Assembly: GCA_903813345.2 (NCBI GenBank)
Contig: CAIIXF020000001.1
Span: forward strand, 17,918,001 to 17,982,000
DNA length: 64,000 nucleotides
Direction: 5' to 3'
DNA from: Owenia fusiformis
Taxonomy: Eukaryota
Position numbers and translations under genes: made by a program. Numbering within the stretch: position 1 is the first letter of the stretch; the number at the start of each line of letters is the position of its first letter. Under the pieces are notes generated by a model. It was given only the letters and a program-made list of their open reading frames with translations. It searched no databases and had not been told where the DNA came from. Positions 22,433 through 62,023 of the stretch are shown in pieces.

Positions 22433-25400
22433 ATAAAGCAGATCCATTATTTCAGAATTGTTCGATTTACGTACGGCTGAATTTTGTATCAAATGGCCTT
22501 TTTGAAAAACAATAATAGTTGAACCCCGATTTCTCATTCCAGCTTCACCAAACCAATATGAAACATCAAAAATCTACTATATTCACCATTCATTTAACAA
22601 TTTTTAAAGATCCCATTGAGTTAATTTGGATTTACAAGCCAGCGTTTCAATTGCCCCTCCCTTAAAGTTGATAAGGTGACTATGAGTATCAAATTTTGTT
22701 GATAAAATAAGTTCAACCTTGCAATTTTCTTTGGACTTAGGTATATCTCTCCACTGTAAACCTCGATCGTAACAGAAAATTGTGTTTATTGCATGTATAC
22801 ACTCGCTATCTTTTTTAAGTATACACTGTAGAGTCTATAATATACATGATAGCTGCACTGTTTAATTGGTAGAAAACACGCCAATACGATTAGAGTAGCA
22901 CACAATAAATTGTGGCGCAATTTGCTCTATGATTCCAAATCCCTATTTGAAAGGTGATTAAGTGTCACTTAACTAAATTTATACATAAAATTGTATATTT
23001 GTAATTGCATTCTTAAATATAGGAGAATTATGTAAACTTTCGTATTTCTATGATCGTTAGTTGATACGAGTAGAAAAGTCAAATTAATTCATAAAACATA
23101 TGTACATTTGGTGGGAAGATGTTTTTAATGTAAAGTAATATATTTATCTAAACATAGTTTTCCAAGCTTCTTACAAAATTTAGAATGATTTGCTCCACAT
23201 TTGTTTGACCACCCTGTACATTGTCTCTTACGTACTCGAAATTGCAGTTTTAGTTGAAATGAAGGTTTTAGCCTACACATTGTCAGTTATGTAAACCTAT
23301 TTTATTTGCATTCGAATTGAGCATCTTAAAAATGTAAATGTATGTTACGACCGTTAGGAGTTATCTACTCTGCAGTGGTTATCTAAATTACAGATATACC
23401 ATGTCTGTTGTCTGCTTATAGCTAATTTTAAGGCTATGCCATTAAAATTATTTGCCATTCAATATGATATGATCGTAAAGTTAACCTCATCGTGAGTACT
23501 ATGTCCCTAGGATTCATAAAACATCGGTTAAACGCATTTAATTAGACATAAATCATGTTTGTTTTTCATTTGGACTTCATTAGCATTCTTTATGTTAATG
23601 TATTTAAACTTTTGTTTAACGAAAATATGAATAACCATTATACAATCGGAATCCGGGAAACATACAGTGAATCTCATGGATACTTTCTATTATGCTATTC
23701 AGCCTCTTTCAAGCACCCTTTGCCTCGGGGGTCATACTCGTCGATTCAGGTAATTCATTCATCTTATATTTATTTGTTTTCATTGCGCTTAAAAATAATT
23801 ATTCAACCATTTAGCATATTTTATTATCGTAATGTCCACTATAGTCTACATGGTTCATTAACTGTTTATGTGTTTAAATCAATTTAGATCGTGGCAACCC
23901 TAACATATAAATCATTGACAAACATTCGAAATATATTCATTGATCGAGGTCAGAAAAGTTTTTAACAAAGTTATATAAAAGAACGCCGATCTCTGTTTTT
24001 AAGGATATTGAGTGATCTCATCCTCATGCATGGACCTTTTATTTTAGGATTCAATTGTTTTAGCATTTTCTTCCGAGTTAAAATAGCATGGGAAATAAAC
24101 GCACCTATGTTTGAATACAATTACAGACATACATTTCTGAATGTAATTTAGTAACCTACAACCTTAGAGGTTCAATTGCTCTCATATATAATGGAAATAA
24201 AACCTGGTCTGTACTTAGAACTATCGCAAGCCCTCCTAAATATGGCAAATTTAGTTATTGGGAAAAGACAGAACTGAAAGATAACCAAGAAATACGACTC
24301 AACTTTGGCCAACTTGAAAATATACTGACGCTATAAATCCCCTGGGTTAGATAGGCAAGTGATTTAATAAACGCAACGAGCACATTTTTCATCCTAATAA
24401 CTGCTTAGACTTTGGTTGCCATGTAGTCGCAATCTCTGCTAAAGGCGATAGGTCTCTGAGACCTTCCCCCAGTTCACCCAGTGCTGCTTTTATTGCTGCG
24501 CTCATTGAACGCAAAGTGAAGACGGTCGTAAATAAAAAATATATTGAAAAGTGGATAGTACTCGCACGACCTCGAATCTTGAAGCTGAAACCAACTCTAG
24601 TTTCAGGCCTGACTATTAAACTGTAACGTGAATTGGGAAGGAAGAGGGGATTGGTTGGGAGAAAACATGTGCTCATCAACCATCAATAGCAGAATTTGAT
24701 TGTATGTTTAATTGTGGTATTGGTCTTGTAGTGCAAGATCGATGGTTAATCTCGTTGCTAGGAGACACGCTTTAACGTTTTCAAAACCGGATATACTGGA
24801 TTATACATTAGATTATGCTGCCATCTTTTGGAAAATGCCATTGCTTGCATTGCGATGACGTATATGAAACATATGGCATATCAACAACGCATATCAACAA
24901 CAAAGCAAATGCCTTCAAAAGTGGACGTGGCCTTCATTCGATCGAGTACACATCTGTGATGTGGCAGACACATGATATTTCCAAATTCGAACTTAACACG
25001 CAAATCCCCATGTGCAGTCTGTATATGGTTCCAGGTTTTTTGTTAATTAATTTGAGTAATTCGTACAACATTCTTGTTCTAGTATCTCAGAAGCAAGACA
25101 ATACAGCATTTGGACGCAGTGTGCAAACATCAAAGTATTCCAATCAATTTTGCACTATCAATTCACTTAAATGTAACAGCTAAATTTACCTTAAAATGTA
25201 CTAAAATCGAAATAAACTTTCATAGATCGATATGGTACAAAGGCAACACTTATTTCAACCATTTAGTGCAACTAAACCGGAAGGATGTATGGAGGCCATT
25301 TGACTTTTGTCAGCTGCAGCAAGAAGATTCTTTCCTTCACAATGACCTTCTTGGAGTTTACTGGATCGGTATTTCCGAGTGGTGGAAAGGTTGTACACTA

Positions 25401-28400
25401 TATTTTCTGGATTCTCTGAAGTCTTGTCTTTACCCTGTAAATCGAGATTGTGTCGCATTTTATCACTTCTCATTTCACAGGGTAAATACAAAACTCAGTT
25501 TTTGCTTCAAATCAAACCATTCCCGACGGCCCCTTCACAATTTGCCATATACCTTCAGCAATATAGTTGCGGATTTGCTGCTCAACGCTCAAGATAGTCA
25601 ACTCCCACGTTAACTATTGGAATAACTTTTTTGAGCTTGAGAAGTAATTGAATAAACAGAGCACCAAATGTGTTGTCAATTGAAATATGACTTAGGTGAA
25701 TAGCTTGTCTTCCAGGTTATGATATATTGCAATATTGGTGTAGTTGACATTTTTTGTTGCCACTATGAGAGAATAAAACTTTTTAAAATTGACATAAAGA
25801 AGTTTTAAGCACTTTATAATGATCAAAAAGGGTAGCTAAGGACATAGGATGTTATGTACGACGCACTCGAGTGAACAGTTGACTATTATATATGTATTTA
25901 TTCAAGAGGTTTGAAGTGAAATCGATCCCATAAAATCCATGTTGAGAGTTTTGACTCTGGCATGCAGATTTTCACTTCCACTCGAATAAGGAACAACAAG
26001 TTTGCACTTTTAATGTTGGGTCATGCCACTTTACTCGTATAGTTCCTTTACGGATCTGCTTTATGATTACAAAAGGCTATCATTAATCTGATAAAACAAA
26101 ACATGTAATGATCCCGGAATATGATCTTGTATTTGATATGTGATTAATACTTATATCAATTCTATTCCATTTTAAACCTCAATACATATCATCTGATATC
26201 AACTATCATCGATATGAATCTTAACGCCTTGAAATTTTTCCGCAAAATCCGTTGCCATCTCACAAAACAAGTCTCTGTTGTAAATGTGATTCCGAGTAGC
26301 TCAAAGATATGCAAGAACTATTTTCTAGTGGTGTTGTATTCAGTATAAGTATCCATCCGCCAATCACCTTCAGGGAGTAACCGATGTGGTAAGTTGTACA
26401 TTTTATGATTATTTTATGAAAATATTAACCATTTTATAGTTTGACGAGGTAATTATAGATGTTGATATGTATTTAGATTCACTAGAAATTGTTTTTTAAA
26501 CATGAATTAATGAATAGATTGACAATAAAACAGCTTATATTTCCTTGTACAAAAAGTCAAGGAGGCATTTCACCGCTTGGTTAATCCCATTAACGAACCA
26601 TTGACCATTCATTATTTGCGCGTATTTATTCACGTAAACCTCCGTTTCGACGTACTATTTTAAACAATTATTTCTAAATTAAAACAATGCAATTTTGTCA
26701 AAATTTGAAAAATATTATACGATAGTAAGGAATATTCTTATAGAAGGAACTGTGATTATCGTTTACGGTGGTGTGTCAAGATGCATCGCTAAAATTCCGC
26801 TTTCAAAAAGGTTGTAACGTAACCAGCAGGAATATTTTGTATCATTTCAAGCGAAATGCTGAGCATATACCTCAGTACGTTCTATATATGATCCGTTAAA
26901 GTGTAAAGTATAAGTTGTATTTCACAACCTATATGGTTCCGTTCCTGTCCGTTCACTCCGCAATTCAAATCATCCTGGTACCGTGTATTCACATAAACTC
27001 CAGTGAAAAAGACATTGGATCTAAAGCTTATGCGTAAAGTGATTCAATACCAATGACATGTTCTTGGATAATTAAGGGGTTTCCCTCCTCCAAAGTAAAG
27101 GAGTAAAATGATAAATCAGAATGTCCTATCAAGAATTGTAGTTTATGATAGATGAAGAGCCAAAAATATAGTCATATATCACCACTTCTGTCGTCTCAAA
27201 TAATGCTTGTCCTGATCCATAACTTACTTACAAGACACTTCCATTTACAAAATGGACATATTCATTAAAGATGTACGTATCTACGTGCGTTTGGATGGTT
27301 ATTTTCCCATGTTTTATCGAAAAAATCTGTGTCAGTAATTTTAGGAACAAAAGTATAAACGTTGAATGCCCATACACACATAATGCATTATAGGCAAGTT
27401 TATCTCATAACCATTTTAAAATAGTCATACGTACTATTGTAGTGCCATGGTGATACTTGAACTATTTTTCAACACTACTTACGGTCATCATAACTATACT
27501 CTTCATGTGGCAGATGCTCAAAAAACTATAAATAACAATACATATGAATAAGTTATAAATTCTGATCACTGGAACAGTTATTCCTATTTACATGAATTTA
27601 ATCGCCGATTTATCATTTGAATTATAAATACATTCACTTTAGTTCGCTCTTTAATACAAATCAATCAACCTGTCTTTTTACTGAATAAATATTATACAAT
27701 TTTGCAGCCATAAACAGACTCATCAATATTTATAACAATAATTTGTGAGTACTAAAATTCTGTCCTGATCATATATCCGTTATTTCTATGTAGATTTAGA
27801 TGCAAATTGAATCATTCACTTACCGACGTTACATGTGATTAGTTAATCCTGTTTTACCATCCCCTAAAGGTCTACATTACGACCAATTTATGTAACAATA
27901 CAATTATGATATATTTCAAACCTGTATTATGATTCTAATGCGGCTATCACGATTTATGGTTTTTAGGTTAACATTTTGACTTTGCTGCATTTTGAATTAA
28001 ATCTTCCTCCGAATCTAAGATACTTTTCTAAATGCAAACACTAAGATGTTTTTCATTTAAATAGCTCCCAGACAAAACGGTGTTGAAACTGTATAAAACA
28101 GTAGTTTCGAGGTAAGAAACCATACATAAAAAACAAATAAAATGTCTGGACCATTCTGTCCTTGTGAGGTGTTTTGGATCGGTGCTAATTACCTCTGATA
28201 TTTCAATATAAAATAGGTAAAATATTAAATATTGTATTTTTACAATATTCATTAACTCAATATGATTATGAATATAGGAATTGGCTCCATTTTTACATCA
28301 AAAATAATTATTTCAAATTAATCATTTTTGCGTTTGATTGAGTACAGGGTGGGCTAAAAAGTAACATTGTAAAAATATTATGGAATTTGAAAAATAAATA

Positions 28401-40587: not shown

Positions 40588-41800
40588 ACAATGGAGTAAA
40601 CATGTGAAGAAAAGTCATCAATTGAAAATCAAAAAATTAATTTTCCAATGAGTTAATCAATTCAATCCAAATTTTAACACAATGTTAATCATAGAAAGAG
40701 GGACACTTTAACATCAAATGAATATGAAAAACTTAATTTGATTATTATTTTTTTGTGGAAATTAGAAGAATGAGTTCTAGATATTAATCCATTAACTCTA
40801 ACAAACGGATTAGTTATCAGTGAACAAAACTCATTTCATAGAAATTGAAAAAACTTAGGGATTAAGGTATTACTTATATTGCTCTGACATTAATACATGT
40901 ATGTGAATGGTGAAAATCTGCATGATTTTGAAAGAATTGTTGGCCAAGGGGAGGGGATCGTTACTCGATAGGTACAGGCCTGTATAAAATGCGTAATGTA
41001 TTTAACAGAAAAATTGAGCAGTTCGGTGTCAAGACTATTTTTGTGGTTGGCAAAGTGAATACAGGTGGTTGATTGTGTCTCTGTAAGAGGGGGCCTTAAA
41101 TGTTGTTTGTTGTAAACTTCATGTGGCGGAGAAACAATGGAGTAAAATATGAGGAAACCCATTGATTAAAACTTAACTTTCCATTGAGTCAATCAATTAA
41201 ATCCAAATTTTAACACAATGTTAATCATAACATAAGGGGCATTATATAATCAAATAAATACGAAAAACGTAATTTTCAAATACTTTTTTTGTGGAACTTA
41301 GAACTGTTGGCTGTAGGAAATTAATCCATTGTCACTAACAAACGGATTAGTTATCAGTGTTAATCAAGCTCATATTAAAGAAATTGAGCAGTTCGGTGTC
41401 AAGACTATTTTTGTGGTTGGCAAAGTGAATACAGGTGGTTGATTGTGTCTCTGTAAGAGGGGGCCTTAAATGTTGTTTGTTGTAAACTTCATGTGGCGGA
41501 GAAACAATGGAGTAAAATATGAGGAAACCCATTGATTAAAACTTAACTTTCCATTGAGTCAATCAATTAAATCCAAATTTTAACACAATGTTAATCATAA
41601 CATAAGGGGCATTATATAATCAAATAAATACGAAAAACGTAATTTTCAAATACTTTTTTTGTGGAACTTAGAACTGTTGGCTGTAGGAAATTAATCCATT
41701 GTCACTAACAAACGGATTAGTTATCAGTGTTAATCAAGCTCATATTAAAGAAATGAAATAATTAGGGATTAACATTTTACTTATCATATTGCTCTGACAT
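40588..41800 (+). repeat. Large-unit (~540 bp) tandem repeat block including an apparently exact 370-bp duplication
   Basis: acaatggagtaaa...aaattttaacacaatgttaatcata...ttaatccatt...aacaaacggatta units. 41011-41380 is repeated at 41381-41750 (the ORF track gives the same peptide twice). Confidence 0.9.
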
Positions 41801-43379: not shown

Positions 43380-44430
43380 GAATTTTGGCAAGGGGGAGGG
43401 TGATTTACTCGAACCCAACGACCCCCCCCCCCTTCCTTGCCAAGGACCTGTATCAAATTTGTAATGTATTGATATATAGTAGTATCGTGTCATCAATGTT
43501 TTGTGTTTTTTGTGAAGTGAATAAAGGTGTTTGTGTCTGTGTGAGAGAGGGCTTTAAGTCTTATTTGTTGTAAGCTTAATTTGACAGAGAAACTTTTGAT
43601 TTAAATTGTGAGGAAACCCAATGAAGTAAAAATGTGAGGAAAGCCATTGATTAAAAATTAACTTTCCATTGAGTCAATCAATTAAATTCAAATTTTAACA
43701 CAATGTTAATTATAACATAAGGGACATTATACGATCAAATAAATATGAAAAACTAAATTTGCAAATTATTTTTCGGTTGAAATTAGAACCATCGGCTGTA
43801 GAAATTAATCCATTAACTCTAACAAACAGATTATTTATCGGTGTGAACAAAACTCAAATCATAGAAATAAAATAATTAGGGATTAAAGTTTGACTTATTA
43901 TATTGCTCTGGAATGTCAATACATGTATGTGAATGTTGAAAAACTATATGAATTTGAAAGAATCATTGGCCACGGGGAGGGGGGTCCTTAAGTATGGTTC
44001 TGTATAAAATGCGTAATGTATTAATTAATTATTGAGCAGTTCTGTGTCATGACTGTTTTTGTTGGCAAAGTGAATACAGGTGGTTGCTTGTATCTGTGTA
44101 AGAGAGGGATTTAAGAGTTATTTGCCAAAAACCTAATGTGACAGAGAAACAATGGAATAAAAATGTGAGGAAAACCAATTAATTAAAAATTCAAAAATTA
44201 ACTTTACAACGAATTAATTGATTGAATCAAAAATTTAACACAATGTTAATCATAACATAGGGACATTATACAATCAAATATATATGTAAAAACTTATTCT
44301 GCAAATTATTTTTGTGGAATTTTTTAAGAACCATCAGCTGTAGAGATTAATCCATTAACCATAACAAACGGATTAATTGTCAGTATGAATGAAACTAATT
44401 TCATAGGAATTGAATAATTAGGGATTAACG
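43380..44430 (+). repeat. Second block of the same ~530-540-bp repeat
   Basis: caatgaagtaaaaatgtgaggaaagccattgatt (~43619) and caatggaataaaatgtgaggaaaaccaatt (~44150). Shared gttggcaaagtgaatacaggtggttg with the 41-kb block. Confidence 0.85.
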
Positions 44431-46914
44431 GCTCGAAAATAAACGCGTATAATCGGTTTTTGATTGCAGATGCCAACATATTATTTGCTCCTGACAAAAA
44501 TATTATTCTATATTATATGGTATTATATGTTGTTCCCTTTAAATAATACACGAATAATATTATTAAATCAAAAATAATTCTTCAAAATACGTATTATATT
44601 TTTTTCCGCTATAATACAAAAAATAACTGCCTACTATACTGGAAAAAATATTCTCTATGATTCTCTCTTAATGCAACTTATTTTGCAGTATATTAAACAT
44701 TTTATTCTATATTATTTTTACATTTTTACCAAGTGTTAGTGTTTAAAAATGTACATTTTAATCAAAAGGTTTAATTTGGTATATAGTAAATAATTAGAAT
44801 AGAATGTGACACTTGCAAATGAATCTCGCAGTTCAGGTACACTTACATCAAACAAATAAATATGTTTAATTTTGAACATATCTATAAAATAAATCTGATG
44901 TTATCTTAAATGCATTGAAAGTACGCTATGTGTTCAGATTAATTGGAACAATACAGAAAAGTATTTTGACATATAGACTTTTCGCGGCTTTTCTTAAACC
45001 TTAAGATATATCAAACCTTACATCAGAGGAAATTATAGATTTTGACATACCAAAATATGATATTCATATTTATTATTTCAGATTTGGATTTGTTTTACCA
45101 TTCTCTATTTTATCTTGAATTACTTTTGACCCATCGTCTTTTTAGATATTATACTTTGAGGATGCTGAAGAGCGCTCACATGGATAGTTTGTAAATATTG
45201 CGAGTAATTTGATCACCCTTTCATGACATATTTTTTAGATTTTATAAACTTTTAATGTTTTTAACATTCTATAGACTACTTTAACGATATTTGAATTCTT
45301 TTTCAAAACTATTTATCCAATTTCCATACGGTCCATGCTGATTATAAACCTTAGGTTTGTTTTTAATGTCATCGTACTTTTAAATAGATTGCATTGATCC
45401 ATCTCTTGTAACTGTGATTGTTGTAGAATTCTCTCAAAATATAGTTTATAGAAAATGAGTATTGATATAAATTCAATATAATTCTCTTCAGTTCCATTGT
45501 CAAAATGCATTCGGCGAAACACAGACTCTTTCAAATTTCTCGTACATTCCCTGCTATTTTAGGTAAATGCATTGATTAATTTATACATATTTAATACACG
45601 CTGGTATACCTATATGCGTTTTCGTATATTCTATTTTTAACTTTGTGTGATCTTGAGATAGAACTTAACTATTGTTTTATAAAAAGTTGACATTTTGTGT
45701 TGGATTAATATGGTTAAGTATGACTTATAGATATGTGCTTTTTCAAATGTTGCCCCGTGTGTTTTATCTGGTCAAACACAAATAATGTATTGGTGAGTAA
45801 ACTAAGTCTACAGAAATGCCAGATTACCATGTGTATCGCGACATAAAAGTCGAAGAAATTGTTCTCTGCGATGTCGCTGTCACATTTCTTATTTTAAACA
45901 ATATTGATGGCTATCATTATATTTATAATGTTAAGTGATCTGACAAATAAAAACACTAACTCAGCTCAACATTTCTTAGCACTTGTGGTTTCATAACGCA
46001 ATGTGCTATGAGGGATCGGTCACTTGGAAATTATTTTATTTTAATACAAATAGTTAATTTTATACAATAAGTACAACACTTATAATTAGTTTTAATTGTA
46101 ACATGCCTTATTGAATTTTATTCTGGTTTTATCATTGAATATTTATTAGAAATGTATAATTGATGTCAATACCAGCATTATTGACATTGAAAATATCTCG
46201 GTTATCATATAAACTTAATGGTTCAAATTACAACGCCGGTCACGTGACAAAATGAAAAACAGAGCAAGATCAAAGCGTATTCCTCTGGTAGTCAATCGCA
46301 TCAAAACATTAAAACCGCTAACTCTATCAAATTAGGCTTGGTGTACGGCTAGCTAAGCTAGAAGTGTCTATGATACGTTGAAGTGACTATGATACGTTGA
46401 TACGAATAGTTTCTCTATTGACCGTAAGTCTTTCCAAGACATGCTGATTCATTCGAAAACAAAATGGCGACCGATCTTTTTTCTCGTCTGACCTACTGGA
46501 GAACGTTGGATTTTATTCTGGTTTTGTACAAAACAAGTTGTGCTTTTCAAACATTATTACCTCAATGGAAATGGCAGTTTATTTGATACCTGGTACCGCA
46601 TAGTGAACAAATGTTTCACTCGAAACAGGAGAATATTGAAGTAGTTCGTTTGCGGCCATATTGGGAAGTAGAAAACACGGCTAGTTTTAAGTCCCGCCTT
46701 CAAAAGTAGTTCCGACCTAAAGCAATCATGAACTATATCTTGCTTTTTAAGTGTATATACACATACTTTTTGCTTTTTCTTCAAACCAATCTACGACATA
46801 TTCTTATTTGCAACTAAATATTAAATAATAAACTCCTAAAGTGTTGTATGTTTTAATATTTCGTTAGAAAAATAGAGAAAAGTAGGATGGGTTTCCTCAT
46901 TTATTATTACTTAG

Positions 46915-47040
46915 TTGTGATTGGACGAGGATTGATGACGCGGTAATTTATTAGGTTTCATTATAGTATCTATGATTGGTTAATGTCAGGTCAAACAGTA
47001 CATTTTCAGTAATTCCAATTCCAGCAGCAGTTCTTTAGTT
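46915..47040 (+). promoter_or_regulatory. Candidate Post2 promoter region
   Basis: Two reverse CCAAT boxes (ATTGG 46920, 46975) and a CRE-like TGACGC (46936), upstream of a strong donor AAG|GTACGT at 47115. Motif-level evidence only. Confidence 0.3.
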
Positions 47041-47280
47041 TATGAAAAAAGTTGAGCATTTTCTGAATAACCATACACATGAATGCAGTTTCGTGGATAC
47101 ATATTAAGGAAAAGGTACGTTTGTCTTAAAGTTTGATAATTTCTTGATTTCTTGGTTGTGTAGCCTCGTGGGATAAACATAACCCCGTGAACTCTATAAT
47201 AAACCTCATTTATTGGCTGATGTGATAGATAGCTTGTGGCTAATGTGACTCATTTAAAGCAATGTTTCTGTAAAGTACGG

Positions 47281-47326
47281 ATGCCTACTACGGAAGCCTC
47301 AGAGATCATGGGGCTAGAGAATCAAG
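47281..47326 (+). CDS. Post2: Candidate short upstream coding exon of Post2 (MPTTEASEIMGLENQ-G)
   Basis: ATG 47281 (and in-frame ATG 47308) runs to the phase-1 donor AAG|GTAAAA at 47327. Joining it to the acceptor at 47660 (GG GAG CCA ATG) is in frame with the main exon. Confidence 0.3.
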
Positions 47327-47667
47327 GTAAAACTTTTCTTTATTAGATCTATGTGTTTGGATACTCTATGAGGTAATGTTTCTTTCAATGATTCGCATGT
47401 TAACTGCAAGGTGCGGCGTTACAACTCTAGCGATGATTGAACAGCGTAAAGTTGTGTGTATATTTTATTATGGCTAATGTTATCTCTTGTAGGACTACAC
47501 TGGTCAATAACTTTATATTGGCAGATCAAGAGGAGCGGCAATCCTCGAGTACTCTCTATCAGTGTTATTGCTTATCATTATGATCATTATGAGTGGTAAT
47601 GTTGGGTGGTTTAACATTTGCAACAACATTTATCATTTAGTTATGTCCCTGTTTTTCAGGGGAGCCA

Positions 47668-48160
47668 ATGATGGATTCCACAACCAGTATCCTAGCTCGA
47701 ACGGGACTCCAGTATTCTGCTAGTTCAGTCACAGCCGCGGGATTAGCGGCGGGGCAGGCTCAGGACACACGAAGGACTTTGTTAGCCGCTGGGGCGGCTC
47801 AGAACGGGTGGCCAGGTGCGGGGGCATACAGTGCATCAGAAAGTTCCGCTCACACACCCTGCAACTTCCCACCGTATAGTAATCTAACGGCCTCAGCCAG
47901 TGCGAATGCACACAAAGCTAGCTCCTACCCAGGAGTTCCAAGTAGCATGGACTTGATGACCAACTGCCAACAAATGCAGCTAAATACCCTGAACTCTCTT
48001 CCCCCGCGTACATTTCCCTTCTATGGAGATATGTATCAACCTGGTCACGCAGTAATGGGCGGTGGGGGTATTTTCTCAGACCTCGCCCAGACCATGCCCG
48101 CCTTACCACGTTTCGACGACAGTGGAGCCTACCTAAACGATACATCAAACACAAGCAATG
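47668..48160 (+). CDS. Post2: Posterior Hox (Post2) N-terminal coding exon; exon begins at 47660
   Basis: GC-rich ORF in an AT-rich background, Ala/Ser/Gly/Pro-rich like Hox N-termini. Preceded by the acceptor gtttttcag (ends 47659). Ends ...ACA AGC AAT G|GTACGT (phase 1), matching the phase of both homeobox exons. Confidence 0.85.
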
Positions 48161-51100
48161 GTACGTATGCTATACATCATGGTGGTCAATACCCATAAAA
48201 AGTATCAATTTACTCAACAGCACGGTTGATATTACACTAGCACATTTTTTGTAGTAGAAGTGATGGTTATTTTGACGTATTCACACTAGAGTAATTTCCT
48301 TTCCATAAAATCTCTATAAAGTTGGGGCATCACAGAGATAATTCGGTTAACGATATATTTGGAAGAAATAAAAATGATTTATGCCTTAAATGATTGACAC
48401 TTTGTTGTGTCATAGAAACTTTGTCTAAAAGATGGCGTGATATTAATTAAAGGTTGTTGTGTCATATTATAACATTCATCAATTATAATGATTGTTCCTT
48501 TTTGACGTTTATTATCTAGAAGTGATAGACCTAAATCTTTCTGATACCCATGACAGCTCTTTGAGTAATTAAGCCTTTACACTTGACCAACCCTGTTATA
48601 ATTTCAACTAATGCCTAATCGAATTCTCTGCCATTACCAGTGCAGTTGCCCCGCTAAATGACAATATGTTCAGTTACTTGCACTAGAATTGGCCTTTGTG
48701 GTAAAACACATTATCATCAGTGGATTAAGAGATAACAATAATGCAGATCGTTCTCTCAATTCAATGCCTGGTAATTTGCATCATCTCCTTCTCCAGATGA
48801 CCGTCCATTAAGACTTGTCTTAATTGGTTTAGAGATGTGATACATCTCTCAAAATCACATTTCTGTCAAATAAGTGATTCCAGTATTTCCTAAAATCAAT
48901 TTAGAACTGTAAACACGAAGTAAGAAAATGTTAGACCAAACAGTTTGGTGAAGGATTCTGAATGCGAAATGTACTTGTTGTAGATCTTTCAATTCATTTT
49001 AATCAGCAAAAATTTAAGGAATCAAATCTGTTTATAATCAAAGGGCTAAGCCGAATAATCTTCGATCATTCACATCTTTTCACAATCAGAAATTTTTATC
49101 TCTTTCCAAAGATGTTCAATGGTTAGATAAGTTTATAATACTGTGGAATCCTCAAAACTAGTATATTTTCAAAATCGGAAACTTTCAACTCCATTTGTGT
49201 TATAATCATTTCAAACGTAAGATAAAAAAGCATTTATGCAGAAAAATACTTATGATCTACATATACTATAATGAAATCAACACAAAAATACTAAACACAT
49301 AATGTACGCATATGAGGCAGTTAAAGTGAAATGAATCTATTCATATAGGATGAATCTCCAATATAATGTGTCTGTTTAATCGTGTAAAGTATTTTCACAT
49401 TGTACAGCTACACTGATCAGTTTAATATGCTTTGATGTTGAGTTCCATAAATAATTAAGTTAAATCATCTTTCTCGATTGTTTCATACTGTTAAAACAAT
49501 GTATTCCATCAGTATTGATCAAGTTGGATTGTTTATACTGACTAGATAAATCTGAAATGTTATCGTGTTAGTTATATGTTTGGGATGGTCAATGTCTTCA
49601 TTAAAACGGCTCTTTGTCTTTCCTGTGACTAATCACACTTAATAAAGGTAATACTAAATAGATGGAATAGATGCTTAATAGGTTCTTGTAAGACAAGAAC
49701 ATATGAGTCCAAAGCACACCAGGCTTGCGAATTTGCCTTATCTATGTGATACAACATAAAATACGCAAATGGAAAATCTGAGAATATAAGATATTCCAAA
49801 GGTAAACACACACACAAGGAAAACATAAACACAATGTATAGTTCAATTTTTGGGTTTATAGGCTTTGGTGACTTCATTGCTCATAAAAATGATATGAATA
49901 TTTTGGTCTCTGATTTACTGAGCTGTGGAGAATGGCATGCACTTCATCCAAGCGACTGTCACCTCCCACCTGCCCAAAGGCAGTAGAGGGGTCATATTCT
50001 CCCTTGAGAGACTTCATGCTTACACTTCAGTTGCCATGACGATGTGATCAATTACCCCAATAATCTAATGACCACACTATAAGATTATAGGTTATCCTTT
50101 GTTTGAAAAACCTTCAAATGATCGTCTTGTTCATCTTTGTTTATTTCTTTTGGACTGCGATTAAAGATATTGTCAAATAGTATATCACTAGTTATTAATA
50201 TTAAAGATTAAACAAACGTGAGAAAAATAAACAACTGTCGACGTAAATCAGTATTGTTAGTAATTATACCATTTTCCCTGTAAAATAACCGGTTGGTTGA
50301 GAGCCAGTGGGCAACGGCTGTGCGTACTTTGACAAATCAGAAAAAGCTATAACTTCACTGAAGGAGTTGTATTCTATGATTTATCGGTTTGCACCCATTT
50401 GGCATCAGATCCATGTGTTCAGGTCTATAATTATCAGAGGATAGTTCTCAACAATTACTATGCCTTTGATCTCAGTCATAAGCTGAAAATACTACGCGGC
50501 CGTTTCATAAAAACAATGGTCAAAGTCCAGCTCACTCGGAAGTAATATCATTGCATTGCTCATTTGTAATATCCTTTCTTGAATGAGAGCAGATTGGAAG
50601 TAATTGCAGTTGATAACATGCATAGAACGCATCAGTTCTCAAATCAGGATGTGTACATTCATTCATTCCCTGTGTCAGACTTTTCTCTACACAATATGCG
50701 TCAGATTTCCAGTTTTAATATGACTATTCTTTTATTTATTACTGTTTAATAGTTTACTTTTTACATGTTAAAAACATACAGAAAATAGAATCAATGTTTT
50801 GAGGGACAATAATCAATTTTCAGCCCCAAACGCCCAACATTCTATAATAGAATCTAATTGATTCGAGAGTACTCTGAAATAAATCATAAATTACATTCAT
50901 TGAGAACGGTACACAGGTTGCTGTTACGTAGATCTATTATGAACAGCCATCAAATAGCAATTCTAAACGCCGTGTTACCGCATGTATGTCTGAAATATGA
51001 TTTAAAATGATCCTGAATACGTTTTCCAAGTGGCATTACGTTGGTTATGTGATGATAATGTACAATATAGTAGGTTTTGGAGCATATGCCATATGTGTCA

Positions 51101-51217
51101 AGTCATTTAGGATGATCTATAGAATATGAAATATGGGAAAGAGATGTCAACTGAACACGTTGAACGTAAGCAGTTGGAGTTGCTGGTTCCAATTTTACCG
51201 CCACGTGTTCATCTCGT

Positions 51218-51430
51218 CAGGCCCGTAGCCAGGGGGGGAGGGGGTTCGATAGGTTCGAGCGACCCCCCCCCCCCCGGCCAAACATTCTTTTAAAATCAGC
51301 CAGTTTTTCACCATTCTGTGCACATTTTAAGTGATTTGGCCATTTTTGGACCAAGATTGTCAAAAGTGAACCCCCCCTGGAATTTTCCAAAAAGTGAACC
51401 CCCACTTGACAAATCTTGGCTACGGGCCTG
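51218..51430. mobile_element. 213-bp hAT-like MITE in the Post2 intron, 14-bp perfect TIR, 5-bp TSD CTCGT
   Basis: ctcgt|CAGGCCCGTAGCCA ... TGGCTACGGGCCTG|ctcgt. Confidence 0.85.
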
Positions 51431-52442
51431 CTCGTTGTCAATATTGCATACTGTATAGATACACCTTCTGCAATTAGGATATACCAACGACATTCCTTGA
51501 CACAATTAATGAAATACTTATTGATGTTAAGTTGAATTAGTTTGATTTTGTCAATGGCCATTTTGCCCTGTTCACATCTTTCACTAATCCGGTTGATGTC
51601 AAACAAATGAGCACTTCGTGTAAACTTTTTGATTTGTTCCTCGTGGTCTGCATCATTCAAAGGATTTGTTATGGATGGTTTTGACTAGTACATTTTGAGA
51701 AGTAAATCATAAGCAAAGGATGCATGTTATAATTCAGTGTTTTATGACTGGCTATTATAGGAACTCCATTTGCTTTATATTGGGATTTGTCATGGTTCTG
51801 TCAAATATCTTACCTGTCACATTTTACAAATGCCCATTGTCTTACATGCTTAAGTATCTTTTTATAACAAAATTCACCTAGAGTTTCACATCAAGTGAAA
51901 CATATAAATATCATAGATCATTTTGACAATGTATCTTGAGTTTTACTTCAGGTGAAACATAGATACCATAAATCATTTTTGTTACTATTCATGGCAAGTT
52001 TGTTCATCTCTATGTGTCCTCTGTGCGAATGCTTTTACGAGTAAAATGTCACATACTTGTATACTCACGTTGTTCCCAACAAACCCACCCATTGAATAAA
52101 CCCGCTATATTTCCATAAGTCATATGAGAATAAGCATATGAATTACATGTTATTGCTGTCAAGGTATTTTACCGTTTTATTTGTTCAACTGCTAATTGTT
52201 TTATCTATGGTTTTCAGTTGGCAATTATTGTCATTCCCTAAAGCTACATAGTATATATTGCGTAGGTTTGTTACCACGGTGACCTGAGACTACTTTTTTA
52301 ATTTTTAGGGTTCGACAATTCTCTCAGTATTGAAAACACTGATATGGCCACGCCAAAATTATATGATGTGTGTTGTATTTTAATGAATATCACTTAGAAA
52401 TTAGAGCTTCCATTCATGTTTTTGTGCAATGTCTCCTTGCAG

Positions 52443-52705
52443 AGCCCAGACAACGGAAGAAACGCAAGCCCTATACAAGGTACCAACTGATGGTATTAGA
52501 GAATGAGTTCATGAACAGTAGTTTCCTAACGCGCCAGAGCAGGTGGGAAATAGCCTGCAAGCTTCAACTAACAGAGCGCCAGGTGAAAGTGTGGTACCAA
52601 AACAGGAGGATGAAACGCAAAAAATTAAACGAACGAGCCAAGTCACTGACAGGCTCATCGCACGTGGGAGATACAGGGAACCCCTCAGGAGTGTTATCAG
52701 CATGA
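52443..52705 (+). CDS. Post2: Homeobox exon A: divergent Post2-type homeodomain (HD 52451-52630) plus a 24-aa tail
   Basis: Acceptor ctccttgcag ends 52442. G|AG CCC AGA gives [69 protein letters not shown]...VLSA*. Reading frame is intact. Confidence 0.85.
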
Positions 52706-52793
52706 CCAGTAAGATAGAGTCCCGCCACACCATGCTTAGCATGTCTCACTCTTGCTAACTACGTGTATTTATAGATACTTCATCCATTTTCAG

Positions 52794-53065
52794 AACCACG
52801 CCAAAGAAAAAAGCGAAAACCATACACCCGGTATCAGACAATGGTATTAGAAAATGAATTTCTGAACAATAGTTATATCACAAGGCAGAAGCGTTGGGAA
52901 ATATCGTGCAAACTGCATCTGAGTGAGAGACAGGTGAAGGTCTGGTTCCAAAACCGACGCATGAAGAGAAAGAAAATGAATGACAGAGTAAAAATGCTCG
53001 TCAAAGATGAGACAATAAATGGCGTTGGAATGAGCCATGTTGAACCAAGTCACATGCAAGTGTGA
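52794..53065 (+). CDS. Post2: Homeobox exon B: canonical Post2 homeodomain (HD 52802-52981) plus a 27-aa tail
   Basis: Branch-like CTAAC 52755-52759 and acceptor ccattttcag ending 52793. G|AA CCA CGC gives [67 protein letters not shown]...[17 protein letters not shown] and WEISCKL are Post2 signatures. Confidence 0.93.
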
Positions 53066-53890
53066 TCACGCATCAGCAGCGGGATTGTATATAAAAAGAG
53101 TCATACAAACGTGGGTGTGTACTGAATGATGGATGTGGATGAAATTAAGTGTTGATGGACTAGTATTTATAAAATACAATGTTGCAGTTGGAACCCCAAC
53201 TGAGGAGGCTTTCAGGGAAGATAGTATTATTTGCCTCAACTTAAGGCGTTCACCAACTAACCATCGCTTCTGATGTTTAGAGTGTATATATTATAACATC
53301 ATTTGCGAACCTCGGAGTCATTGAATTAAGCGGCAAGAAGCCGAGCATGGCTGGTGTACGCCATGGTATCACCACGTTGTACTTCCTTTATAGTAATAGA
53401 TCGTTTAGGTGTAGAGTCGATATCTGTATAGTAAATATTAATATATTCTATGATTAACAAGTATATGTAGAAAAAAGCATTGTTTCGTGTGGTCAACCTA
53501 TGTATTCTAAAGACTATGTTCTCCTTGTAAATCACCATTAACATTTTCATTTGTATATAGATCATTATGAATAACATTTTTAAATGTCAAACCACTGCGA
53601 AACAGATCTGATTGTAAATCAGAAAGATATTTATTTGAAAAGTTCCAACAAGTTGTATGGTATTATGAATATGTGTGCTTTATCGTAGTTTAAATGCTAA
53701 ATTACGGACGAGTTAATTGCGGGTTAAATATATTATGATATGTTTCATTGTGGGAGTTTACATAAAATCCTCATTTAGTAAACATAAACACCGCCATGGA
53801 ATATAGAATATACGCTGATTAATCATTGGGTTGATTTTTATAACTGATCCTAAAGGGATATACATCTCTCGTAAAGTCTACCAGGACTGT

Positions 53891-53896
53891 AATAAA
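53891..53896 (+). terminator. Candidate polyadenylation signal of Post2
   Basis: First AATAAA I could find downstream of the exon B stop (about 825 nt after it). None seen between exon A and exon B. Confidence 0.3.
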
Positions 53897-56800
53897 ATTC
53901 ATATTAATTTAATTGGAGGTCTCAATTTATGATGACCTTCACAACACATCAACAAGACAAATTTGCTGAAACTTATGGTGAAGTTCAACTTTATAAAAAA
54001 GCACTGAAAACTTACAGAATAAATATATGACTGAAACACCCCTAGGGGTAAATTTGATGGTGCCGTCACGTGATATCCAGCTATCGGGTTGCAATATATG
54101 TCGCCCACCCCGAGATTACGTTTATCTTATATCCTCTTTTTATAACTGGCCTAAGGATGATATACATCTACTTAAATTGCTGGAAAAACACATGGCCATA
54201 ATCAGTGTAGGAGCATGCAGCTTCTTAAATGCTAAAAGGGAGCCACCTCAAAACATGTTGATGTCCTTCGGTACTGTACTTGCAATCCTGATAGAATATA
54301 TGATTTTTAAATACAAAATGATTTGTTATGATTAAGTTAGATTTGCTCAATGCATATTATACACATGTCTCATGAAACAATAATTTAGGATGTGAAATAG
54401 CACCAGTGATCACTATTCAATACCATTGAATAATTGAATAGATGATCACTCGTATTTTTCACATTTTTATTAGGTACTTATTTTTTAGAGACACCGACAT
54501 TTGTCTTTGTTTTAAACATTGAACGGTGGAACTGCTTCCTTGTTATATAATTTGCACATTTCCTTTTTACGAGTTTTGCAATATTTTCGAATTTGTTACT
54601 GACAATTTTAATTAGTCGTTCATTCCTTATTAAACAGTTTTTGTTTCTTTCAGCAGGCTTTGGTTATTTGTTTTTACAAAATATTTAGTACTCCAGAAGT
54701 GTTAAAAGGGCCTCGAAAGTCGAATGAGCAATATCAATATGTTTTTTAAACCAGTTCTTCATTTAAGATTGTATTACCATTCTGAATTCTTATGCTAAGA
54801 ATACTTTTTTCTCGTCAGACTTTGTTTTTTCAAAGTCAAATGAGTAAAACTGTTACACAGTGTGACTGGTTCAATGATATTGCATATGGTGTAAACATAT
54901 TATTGAAGGAACATAGAATGATTTGGAGGGGAAACCTAAGAGTTTTTATTGTTGTTTAACCATCAGGTTAATATACTTTATAGTACGTATGATGGTTACA
55001 AAAATATGTTCAAATCGATGGGCGATCATTTAAATTTTTGTTTTCATTCTAACACCAACAAACAATGCCTCAGACGTAGACATTAGTTATGTATATTACG
55101 TCGATTTGGTTTAAAGTTTATATAAATCATTCTATGTTGATGCAACAGAATAATGTGGAAATGGTGCTTGAAACTGAATGGAAACAGTTTTCATATATTA
55201 TATACGTGTGTTTCATATGTTCTTTTTTGTAGACCAAGGTTTATCTTGCCAAGTTCTTAATATGTAAATCAGAGTTTTGAAAATTTAAAGACCATGTGTA
55301 AAGTTTAAAAACATGCTTCTTTATTCAAATATTTTTTTTAAGATTTCAAAGCTTACCCCGAATAAATTGAAATGAAAAAGCAAATTTGGCCCTTTTTTCA
55401 CAAAACCTCAAACACCCATCTGGTTCAATATAAACACTATTAACATTTTAATTTTATATTCACTTTTATAAGACTTTTACAGTTTTAACTTTACACTGGG
55501 TCTTTAGAAATTATATGTTGGTATAAACAAAACATGATTGTGTACAACAAAATCTATGTTTGGTCTGTATGTATATTAGCATTTTAGTTTAGACAATAAC
55601 ATTTCCTGACAATGCCAAAAATGCAATCGCAGATATGAATAGCGCCATGTGTGTCGATAAACTCAACTGTGCAATTATATATAAACAGGGGTTTGTAGCA
55701 TAGTATAAGTAATATGAAGTAAATGATTATGTAAATTATGAAAACAGATGTTGTGTTGACTTTGATATGTGAGGGTTAGGGTTAGACCTATAATCAATAT
55801 GGGCACATCGTAATTCCATTTCCATTTTTGATCTTTCAGAGTATTCCTTTTAAAATATTATTTTGTCGTGAAGTCTTTTTCTTTTTTATTGATTTCCTTC
55901 ACATTATTCCTTTCCTCAAACAAAATGACGGATTTGCCGCAACATCTTGTAAAACAATTACGCAAGTAAATGTAACTCTAACTCCAAGATTAGACACAAG
56001 GGACCAGTTGCCTGTCGCAAAATTACTTAAAGATATATTTGATATATGATTCTCACTCTATATTTTCTCGTCAACGTGACTCAACGATGATCCCCAAAGA
56101 ATGGATTTCAGCAACTTAACAAAAGTTATGTTCCAGGAACTATGAAACAAACATTCTCAAAATGTCAAACCTCTGAAAACTTACTTTCTCAAATGGCTAC
56201 ACGAGAAATTTCAAAATCCACAACATGAATGCCTGCAATTTTAAAAGGAATAAACCCGCTTATTTGTTGAGGAATATTGTTCTAAATTTTAATTTTTCAG
56301 AAAATGGGGTTATACCAAAGTCTTTTCATTGCAAGTTACATATTTATAAATATTCTTTAATTTGGGATGGTTCTAAGTATAACTTTTTTCTTTGGCTTTC
56401 ACTTGATATTACCGGCAAGTTCTAGAGTTATTAGATTAAGCATAATTCATGCCTCAATTTTATGTCTTCACTATTCAATTGATATGTAGTGTCAATTTAA
56501 AACAAAACTGGCAATGGCTTATTTGACCTTGATACTTGAGTTTTGATTTTTGACTCCCATATGGTTGAACTCCCGCTGACACCAGCATGCATCTTGCTTG
56601 ACCGAATTCTATATTTTCATATCTGAAAATTACATCTGACTGACATTTTTTAAATGGTTAGTCGTTTTTATGTTACTCACATGCCCTGGTTTTCTGATTT
56701 GCTCGTTTATAGGTCATTTGGCCATTATTCATGGACCGCAATTTGAATCTCAACTTGAAGTTTAAGAAAAAGCGGCCATTTTACATTTTGGAGAATATTT

Positions 56801-60181: not shown

Positions 60182-62023
60182 AAAGCGAGCTATCAACGGA
60201 AATAACAGCCTTAAAAAATACAGCCGCGCCAGGCCTTGATGGGTTCAAGGCTGATATAATAAAATCTGTTGGTGCTTATCTCGTCAGGCCACTACTATAT
60301 ATCTTCAATCTCTCACTATCAACTGGAACATTTCCCAATCAATTAAAAGTAGGAAAAGTCACACCAATTTTCAAAAAGGGAGATACTCAGCTCTTTTCAA
60401 ATTACAGGCCCATTTCAGTGTTATCCGTATTTTCAAAATTACTCGAGAGATGCGTACACTCTCGCCTTGTAAGCTTTCTAAACAAATTTGAAATACTTTA
60501 TAAAAACCAATTTGGTTTCCAGAAGAAAAAGTCTACATACATGCCACTTCTAGCTTTTATTGAAAAGATAAGATGTGCAAATGAAAGCAAAATTCCTTCA
60601 CTAGGGATATCATTAGACTTCTCAAAAGCATTTGACACTATTGATCATAATATATTATTAGATAAACTCTCACACTACGGAATGCGCGGTGTTACCCTTT
60701 CCTGGTTTCAAAGTTACTTAACTCAACGTCTTCAGACTGTTATTTCTAATGGCTGTAAATCGAAACAAACCTCATTATCTCATGGTGTCCCTCAAGGTTC
60801 AGTGCTTGGTCCTATTTTATTTCTTCTTTACATAAATGACATCTACAAATCCTCTGATTTCTTTGAATTCATACTATTTGCTGATGATACCAATCTCTTG
60901 GCCTCTCACAAAGATTTACCCACTCTATTTGACACCGCAAATGAAGAACTTTCAAAGCTCAGTGACTGGATCAATGCCAATAAACTTTCTTTAAACATTG
61001 ACAAAACTAAATGGATTCTCTTTGGACCAGGTAAAACTTCTAACAATCATTTTCTCAAAATAAATGACACCAAACTCAAGCAAGACATCACTATATCTTT
61101 CTTAGGAATAGCTATTGATGCCAATTTAACTTTCAAAGAGCATATCAAAAACTTAGAAAAAAAGATTTCTCAGTGCATTGGGGTCTTGTATGGAGTCCAT
61201 AATCTTTTAACAAAAAGTGCTTTGCTCAGTATATACTACTCTCTTATTCACTCTCAACTCAATTACTGCAATATTATTTGGGGTAACAACTACAAATCTT
61301 ATCTTAATAAAATTCACATGATTCAAAAACGATTTGTTCGCATTGTTTTAGGAAAAAAATACCTTGATCATACAGCTCCATTATTCAAAGAACTTAATCT
61401 TCTGAATATATATGATATAAATAAGCTGAATACAGCAATTTTCATGTACCAAGTAAAAGATGGTGACCAAATACTAAATTCTCTACTCGATACAAATTTC
61501 CAAATAAACTGTGATACACATAGTTATAATACCCGCCAATGTGACAACTTCCATATTGAACATGCGAACAAATTTTCCATAAAACGGAATGGGCCTTCAC
61601 TATGGAATTCTCTTAAAAATTCCACAAAAATGTCAAAATCTATAACCTCCTTTAAAAAGGCCTACAAATCTGACCTCTTGTCAAGCTACTTATAAAAAGT
61701 CTTATTAAACATCTTTATTTACTATCCACGCATTGTATATTACAATAGTCATGGCACATCATTTAAACACAACGTACATACATGCTTAGTATATGCATTG
61801 TACTATGTTATATCATGTAAATACTTGTATATATGAAACTCATATACCTATATACCCTTGTAAACTAGTTAGACTATATATATATATTTTTTATATTTGC
61901 TAGTGATACTTTTTTTTTGATACTTGACATTATACTTTTATATGCCATTTGGTGTCAGTATTAGTCATGTATTATTATTGTATATACATTTTTTCTAAAT
62001 AAATAAATAAAAATAAAAATAAA
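60182..62023 (+). mobile_element. 5'-truncated non-LTR retrotransposon (CR1/L2 group) with (TAAA)n tail
   Basis: RT ORF, then a ~330-nt 3' UTR ending taaataaataaataaaaataaaaataaa. Probable short TSD aatttt. Confidence 0.9.
60184..61695 (+). CDS. LINE ORF2 fragment: reverse transcriptase and C-terminal domain, 503 codons without a stop, no native start
   Basis: Motifs APGLDG, PIFKKG..NYRPIS, LDFSKAFD, HGVPQGSVLGP, FADD, FLG, HSYNTR. The frame is open 234 nt upstream of the track's GTG start. Endonuclease domain absent. Confidence 0.92.
   Translation, partial: SELSTEITALKNTAAPGLDGFKADIIKSVGAYLVRPLLYIFNLSLSTGTFPNQLKVGKVTPIFKKGDTQLFSNYRPISVLSVFSKLLERCVHSRLVSFLNKFEILYKNQFGFQKKKSTYMPLLAFIEKIRCANESKIPSLGISLDFSKAFDTIDHNILLDKLSHYGMRGVTLSWFQSYLTQRLQTVISNGCKSKQTSLSHGVPQGSVLGPILFLLYINDIYKSSDFFEFILFADDTNLLASHKDLPTLFDTANEELSKLSDWINANKLSLNIDKTKWILFGPGKTSNNHFLKINDTKLKQDITISFLGIAIDANLTFKEHIKNLEKKISQCIGVLYGVHNLLTKSALLSIYYSLIHSQLNYCNIIWGNNYKSYLNKIHMIQKRFVRIVLGKKYLDHTAPLFKELNLLNIYDINKLNTAIFMYQVKDGDQILNSLLDTNFQINCDTHSYNTRQCDNFHIEHANKFSIKRNGPSLWNSLKNSTKMSKSITSFKKAYKSDLLSSYL

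Follow-up and report, generated by a model that had tools for sequence, protein, structure and literature searches.

Two tandem homeobox exons behind one N-terminal exon in an annelid-type Post2 Hox locus: a candidate case of homeodomain exchange by alternative splicing

Introduction

Can one Hox locus place two different homeodomains behind the same N-terminus? This question is raised by a window of 64 kb (the whole stretch of DNA that was analysed, to whose first letter all positions refer), in which the original prediction had described a Post2 gene with two tandem homeobox exons and had proposed that these are exchanged by alternative splicing. Several Hox isoforms are known, such as the Ubx micro-exon forms of Drosophila, the m and r forms of Abd-B and the homeodomain-less forms. 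The locus described here would resemble these cases in that several proteins are obtained from one Hox locus by splicing or by the use of promoters. To our knowledge, however, the known Hox isoforms share one homeodomain or lack one, and none exchanges its homeodomain for a second.

Structure of the locus

The locus consists of one Post2 N-terminal exon followed by two complete Post2 homeobox exons, here called A and B. The window sequence was re-read and translated, and the anatomy and coordinates that had been predicted were found to be correct. The features are as follows:

47660 to 48160, + strand: Post2 N-terminal coding exon (exon 1), from sequence, translation, homologue alignment and profile search
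48161 to 52442, + strand: intron of 4282 nt, from sequence
52443 to 52708, + strand: homeobox exon A, 266 nt if the donor at 52708/52709 is used, from sequence, Pfam and alignment
52709 to 52793, + strand: putative 85-nt intron between exons A and B, its use being suggested by the sequence
52794 to 53065, + strand: homeobox exon B, coding part, from sequence, Pfam and alignment

The coding sequence of exon 1 starts with the ATG at 47668 and extends to 48160 (493 nt, translated as 164 codons plus one nucleotide), and an acceptor-like tgtttttcag ends at 47659, just 5' of this ATG. The exon closes in phase 1 on the donor 48160/GTACGT, which was placed at the 98.8th percentile among GT sites by a crude donor matrix, the same matrix being used for all donor scores given here. 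Towards the end of the following intron, a branch-point-like TTCAT is found at 52413–52417, with its A 26 nt before the AG of acceptor A, and a pyrimidine-rich tract comes next.

Exon A is preceded by ctccttgcag and opens with the split codon G/AG followed by CCC; its coding part (52443–52705, 263 nt, with the stop TGA at 52703–52705) specifies a divergent Post2 homeodomain and a tail of 26 amino acids. Exon B is preceded by ccattttcag and opens with the split codon G/AA followed by CCA, giving the same first residues as exon A; its coding part of 272 nt ends on the TGA at 53063–53065 and specifies a canonical Post2 homeodomain and a tail of 29 amino acids. It was thus confirmed in the sequence that both exons begin at the same codon position after a phase-1 CAG acceptor and that each has its own tail and stop, as had been claimed. 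The two starts lie 351 nt apart, and the spacer from the exon A stop to exon B measures 88 nt. By upstream pyrimidine content, acceptor A stands at the 82nd percentile of AG sites and acceptor B at the 91st. The predicted products have the lengths originally given for them, 251 amino acids via exon A and 254 via exon B, and share residues 1–165, the conserved NGW motif included.

A donor that was missing from the original prediction, CCA/GTAAGA at 52708/52709, is located 3 nt past the exon A stop. Among the 3497 GT sites that the same strand of the window contains, its score stands at the 96.5th percentile; 121 donors as good occur in the 64 kb, so that about 0.02 would be expected by chance in any 10-nt stretch and about 0.17 in an 88-nt spacer. 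The putative 85-nt intron is delimited by this GTAAGA donor and the CAG acceptor of exon B, and it contains a pyrimidine tract and a branch-point-like CTAAC whose A (52758) precedes the AG by 35 nt. Neither AATAAA nor ATTAAA is present in the 88-nt spacer, and the next poly(A) signals 3' of the exon B stop are AATAAA at 53891 and 54018, to one of which the 3' UTR of exon B probably extends. Inside exon A, a cryptic donor CAG/GTGGGA at 52543 has the highest crude score within 52443–53400; it was created by the A-specific K30S codon, and its phase is incompatible with the acceptor of exon B. Exons A and B are adjacent, homologous, similar in length, in the same phase and each provided with splice signals, and they are in this sense tandemly duplicated exons.

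Identity of the gene

The Pfam homeodomain profile PF00046 matches exon A with 72.2 bits and exon B with 77.9 bits (cut-off 22.9), in both cases over profile positions 1–57, and the two exons agree at 55 of 78 residues (71%, E 2e-43). Searches of the window with tblastn returned exactly two homeoboxes and one N-terminal exon, and no homeobox other than A and B in the 64 kb. The nearest solved structures are those of Abd-B (5zjq, E 6.9e-20), Hox-C9 and Hox-A9. Related proteins were recognized in 72 of 73 candidates for exon A and in 227 of 232 for exon B, the best 120 of the latter being listed; for exon A, and for exon B among the matches listed, these relatives are posterior Hox homeodomains. 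Among the matches listed, the best named ones are Post2 of Platynereis dumerilii and posterior Hox fragments of Capitella, Lamellibrachia and Helobdella, with mollusc relatives such as that of Octopus ranking below those of annelids. The best match to exon B among them reaches 90% over 81% of its length, and none of them shares its tail.

In a tree of 41 homeodomain rows (70-column alignment, with Post1 and other Hox outgroups left out), both A and B fall within the annelid-type group with a support of 95/95; the tree leaves open 28 of its 38 inner branches and the entire order within the annelid-type group, including whether A and B are sisters. Exon 1 aligns with the part preceding the homeodomain in P0009, which is named Platynereis Post2 at its source, and with a further N-terminal fragment, P0004 (41% identity), and the motifs FPFYGDMYQP and FSDL..IPRFD are common to exon 1 and these proteins. 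On the basis of the homeodomain relatives, the tree, the alignment of exon 1 and the nearest structures, the gene can be assigned to Post2, a posterior, Abd-B-like Hox gene, of an annelid-like lophotrochozoan.

Age of the duplication and selection on exon A

Over the 68 ungapped codons of A and B, identity amounts to 52/68 (76%) at first, 60/68 (88%) at second and 25/68 (37%) at third codon positions; it is 82% for first and second positions combined, and 2 of 11 four-fold sites are identical. Nei–Gojobori estimates (NG86) give a dN of 0.14–0.17 with dS beyond saturation, and the ML omega is 0.006–0.023. Since the synonymous sites are saturated, the duplication of the homeobox exon is ancient. 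Had one copy lost its coding role at the time of the duplication, its replacement sites would be as scrambled as its silent ones, and this was not observed; saturated silent sites, together with conserved first and second positions and conservative replacements mostly at variable sites, show that exon A was kept as a coding exon.

The two exons were further compared with 47 orthologues that have a complete homeodomain, over 59 positions (homeodomain, HD, 2–60). Exon B keeps the canonical form of the homeodomain core and shows just two departures from the orthologue consensus, one at the variable position 21 and the other being L59M. Exon A shows ten departures, six of them at the 12 of 59 positions that are variable (hypergeometric P 0.003), and five of its residues (T13L, Y25F, I26L, K30S and F49Y) are absent from all 47 orthologues. 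The 11 differences between A and B have a mean BLOSUM62 score of +1.27, compared with a mean of −0.26 when non-synonymous changes were drawn at random in simulations (P 0.0013). Of 20000 neutral simulations in which the number of replacements was kept equal, 12266 acquired a stop. In the flank that follows the homeodomain, exon A has the ancestral LNERAKSL found in annelid orthologues, and exon B reads MNDRVKML. A and B are therefore each the more conservative copy in a different segment, which would suit two functional exons better than one functional and one decaying exon. Both copies show the signature of long-standing purifying selection. It was also found that exon A evolves faster, as judged from its terminal branch in the tree (0.43, where that of B is 0.15 and the median is 0.023), and this could reflect relaxed constraint.

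These data bear on a different reading, namely that exon A is a recently silenced relic of the old duplication and that only the form joining exon 1 to B is made. Such a relic would account for the long branch of exon A, for the five substitutions at positions invariant in the 47 orthologues (Y25F and F49Y among them) and for the cryptic donor inside the exon, and it agrees with the finding of no relative with an A-type exon among 72 related proteins and 80 Post2 loci and of zero exon A reads in three RNA runs (X12–X14), where exon 1 and exon B had zero reads too. However, exon A is open over 87 codons in AT-rich DNA, its replacements are of a conservative kind and cluster on variable sites, it keeps the ancestral flank that B has lost, and a functional-looking acceptor 5' of B would compete in every transcript unless it were regulated. 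Stops, frameshifts and neutral-looking substitutions, the marks of a pseudo-exon, were looked for in exon A and none was found; its frame is open and free of indels relative to B over 68 codons, with a raised rate. The facts fit only a very recent loss of use, and we consider this reading fairly unlikely.

Source of the N-terminus of exon A

Within its open frame, which starts at 52367, exon A has no in-frame ATG upstream, and its translation must therefore begin in a coding exon further upstream with a phase-1 end. When a profile of four Post2 N-termini was run, with all filters off, on the 3031 open stretches that the six frames of the window contain, it matched only 47641–48195 (E 2e-93), the next match having an E of 7.4, so that no second Post2 N-terminal exon was detected in the 64 kb. 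The earlier statement that a second such exon is not evident holds for the 64 kb by this profile as well as by tblastn. As A and B both need a phase-1 exon and a single one is visible, both would be reached from 48160 by alternative splicing, barring a first exon that cannot be recognized as such. The absence of an ATG in the frame of exon A, the conservation of both homeobox exons and the single phase-1 exon in view thus support the proposal that the two depend on one upstream exon.

It may still be asked whether exon A is part of another transcript, separate or overlapping, that has a first exon of its own, either a short and unrecognizable coding exon in the 4.3-kb intron or one beyond the window, in which case the locus would hold two nested genes. 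The r form of Abd-B is made from an internal promoter, and for exon A any upstream exon would suffice that provides an ATG and a phase-1 donor. Since N-terminal regions diverge fast (exon 1 is just 41% identical to its nearest relative), a short or strongly diverged exon would escape both tblastn and the profile search. On the other hand, neither the 47.6 kb upstream nor the 11 kb downstream yielded a second Post2 N-terminal exon, the best non-self profile match being the one with an E of 7.4, and the 351-nt period and identical phase of A and B fit a simple tandem exon duplication. A separate first exon is hence regarded as quite unlikely.

Authenticity of the tandem pair

An independent short-read contig of 2407 nt, from run X1, spans 51478–53885 and includes both exons. 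It differs from the window by 20 substitutions and 1 gap (0.8% differences), which indicates another haplotype or individual; 14 of the 20 substitutions lie at 51519–52401 and 6 within 52402–53885. Reads of X1 cover each of the 30 bins, also those in introns, and X1 is therefore DNA. The idea that the pair is an assembly artefact, from collapsed or expanded haplotypes or a chimeric join, is extremely improbable: nothing specific speaks for it apart from a suspicious repeat elsewhere in the assembly (the perfect 370-bp tandem duplication at 41011–41754), A and B differ at 29% of residues with saturated synonymous sites and are thus not allelic copies, and the 2407-nt contig covers both exons, so that the mis-assembly which the original prediction had named as a possible refutation was not found.

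Splicing model and RNA data

We think it reasonably likely that both homeobox exons are used alternatively from the one N-terminal exon, most likely by a cassette-exon mechanism. The homeobox exon was duplicated in tandem long ago, and both copies were kept as coding. According to this model, both rely on the one N-terminal exon located 4.3 kb upstream, since A and B begin in phase 1 without a start codon of their own. The form produced would then follow from a choice between two acceptors 351 nt apart. If acceptor A were used, the 266-nt cassette exon would be included, and the mRNA exon 1–A–B, with exon B as 3' UTR, would encode the protein of 251 amino acids; if exon A were skipped, exon 1 would be joined to B directly, yielding the canonical Post2 of 254 amino acids. 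Retention of the 85-nt intron would give the same protein as its removal. A stop as near to the last exon junction as that of exon A, which would lie 3 nt before it, should not trigger nonsense-mediated decay under the 50-nt rule, and such decay would not be expected here. Exon A is modelled as a cassette rather than a terminal exon on account of the lack of a poly(A) signal in the spacer and the donor 3 nt past the stop.

Three other arrangements were considered and set aside. An alternative terminal exon was rejected as the main model, the sole ATTAAA near exon A (52624) being inside its coding part and the spacer having no signal. An in-frame isoform with two homeodomains was likewise rejected, since none of the better donors inside exon A (52543, 52583, 52664 and 52709) is in phase 1 as acceptor B requires. 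As to RNA pairing as the means of exon choice, the complementarities found were all short and AT-rich; a stretch of exon B at 52970–52983, for instance, is complementary (12–13 nt, 85–92%) to the pyrimidine tracts at 52411–52423 and 52780–52791, in front of exons A and B. They are too weak for interpretation and may be due to chance.

Reads of the three RNA runs, which carry the same species label and of which about 6–12% of the reads were sampled, were mapped over 44500–56500. Zero depth was obtained on exon 1, A and B, from which it follows that the gene is not detectably expressed in these samples and that the runs do not bear on splicing. Within 44500–56500, reads were found only at the repeat 51218–51403, at 44500–44900 and, in the case of a few X13 reads, at 53723–54524. 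In other annelids, Post2 is reported to be expressed in the posterior growth zone, the tail of the late larva or juvenile and the hindgut (PMC7854359, PMC8482071).

The X13 reads at 53723–54524 have a depth of 0.5–1.0, with the first mate on the minus strand, and span the AATAAA signals at 53891 and 54018 and the sequence just beyond. They could represent the Post2 3' UTR or an unrelated transcript.

Predicted differences between the two isoforms

The two homeodomains differ at 11 of 59 positions (HD 2–60), which are spread over helix 1, the loop and helix 2 (13, 21, 23, 25, 26, 30, 35, 39 and 41) and include positions 49 and 59, and the C-terminal tails differ throughout. The N-terminal arm (HD 2–9) and helix 3 are the same in A and B except for F49Y. 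The description of the exons as "swappable DNA-binding domains" is accordingly overstated. R5, V47, Q50, N51 and M54, which we take to be the base-contacting residues, are unchanged between A and B, while Y25, altered to F in A, is presumably a phosphate contact. Since the base-contacting residues are unchanged, the isoforms would probably differ in affinity, partner contacts or tail-dependent activity and not in core DNA specificity. A different core specificity of A and B appears unlikely, and altered backbone contacts (through Y25F), partner surfaces or tail function are more plausible.

Occurrence elsewhere and comparison with known systems

The signature residues of exon A were found in none of the 72 related proteins. 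A further survey covered 80 Post2-bearing contigs from metagenome collections, which total 305 kb, probably come from few species and provide at least 500 nt upstream of the homeobox in 54 cases, downstream in 70 and on both sides in 44; in none of the 80 was the A signature, a homeobox closer to A than to B or a second complete homeobox observed. Close relatives are absent from both the protein and the locus collections. The survey goes no further than to show that the tandem homeobox pair is not a general feature of Post2.

Two of these contigs, L079 (5001–5722) and L080 (515–1207), have a Post2 homeobox split by an intron of about 400–460 nt near homeodomain position 45–46, which is a lineage-specific gain in other species. 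In P0076, an open frame of 67 aa on a 1891-nt ENA contig of another species, half of a Post2 homeobox, the first, is present twice, in tandem and in frame; either part of the exon was duplicated there or the assembly may be at fault.

Several Post2 genes are present in leeches and earthworms, and two different proteins of Helobdella robusta (P0040 and P0094) are among the exon B matches listed. The locus studied here resembles these clitellate duplications as a lineage-specific expansion of the Post2 repertoire in annelids; in clitellates, however, every copy is a gene by itself and has an N-terminal exon of its own, and here the homeobox exon alone is doubled, behind a single N-terminal exon.

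The original prediction had known of no such description for Post2, and a search of the full-text literature (supplements and subscription journals lay outside it) found no Hox gene of any kind described with alternative homeobox exons. The novelty that had been claimed for the exchange stands for Hox genes in this search; exchange of homeodomain sequence by alternative exons as such is known outside them, from unc-62 of Caenorhabditis elegans and Meis of Capitella. In unc-62 (Meis/Homothorax), the N-terminal part of the homeodomain is encoded in two alternative versions, by exons 7a and 7b, for which distinct tissue expression and function were reported (PMC3585033). As in the present case, two exons of one gene thus provide alternative versions of a homeodomain. 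Unlike Post2, unc-62 is a TALE-class Hox cofactor, its two exons are internal and carry the N-terminal part of the homeodomain alone, and the downstream exons are common to both forms, whereas the Post2 duplication, known here from sequence alone, extends over the complete homeodomain and takes in the C-terminal tail and the stop codon as well. In Meis of Capitella teleta, exon 9 was reported to be tandemly duplicated and mutually exclusive, the two versions differing by 5 residues (PMC3140891). This is, like the present gene, an annelid homeobox gene with a tandemly duplicated exon, which is there alternatively used; in contrast to this TALE-class gene with its 5 differing residues, Post2 is an ANTP-class Hox gene in which 23 of 78 residues differ and silent sites are saturated.

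Implications

In the standard view, new Hox functions arise from the duplication of whole genes or from changes outside the homeodomain. Two selected alternative homeodomains behind a shared N-terminus would represent a third route. We lean slightly towards the interpretation that Hox output is diversified here by duplication of an exon and not of a gene, with regulated exon choice giving two paralogue-like Post2 proteins that differ in their homeodomain surfaces and tails. If this is true, the two forms could serve different tissues or stages, and exchange of the homeodomain by splicing would be known from a Hox locus for the first time; confirmation by RNA would mean that a known mechanism, tandem exon duplication with alternative splicing, is for the first time seen applied to a Hox homeodomain.

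The locus would also offer a natural experiment, in that the two forms have promoter, N-terminus and cofactor motif in common and are set apart by 11 homeodomain positions and the tail. It would allow the contribution of homeodomain residues that do not contact bases, and of the C-terminal tail, to Hox specificity to be tested in vivo. For annotation, it is relevant that gene predictors report one form or a truncated model, and similar cases may hence be hidden in other genomes.

Other features of the window

Several other long open reading frames (23552–25613, 53997–54335 and others) were considered as genes and discarded, as they have no Pfam match and a composition that looks non-coding. 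A retroelement is located downstream of Post2, as seen from the following feature:

60184 to 61695, + strand: open frame of 503 aa with a reverse-transcriptase domain (RVT_1, E 2.2e-32)

The Post2 intron contains a high-copy short repeat at about 51218–51403, where the X1 word depth rises to hundreds to thousands, compared with about 16–23 nearby. Hundreds of reads of runs X12–X14 match this repeat in part and continue into unlike sequence, and it looks like a SINE- or MITE-like element transcribed from many loci.

Two further duplications are located upstream of exon 1. The one at 41011–41754 is perfect (period 370 nt, 2.0 copies, 100% identical) and is either very recent or an assembly artefact. 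At 43528–44428, three collinear direct-repeat blocks with a spacing of about 540–557 nt are 79–83% identical and represent a tandem duplication of greater age, with a unit of about 550 nt.
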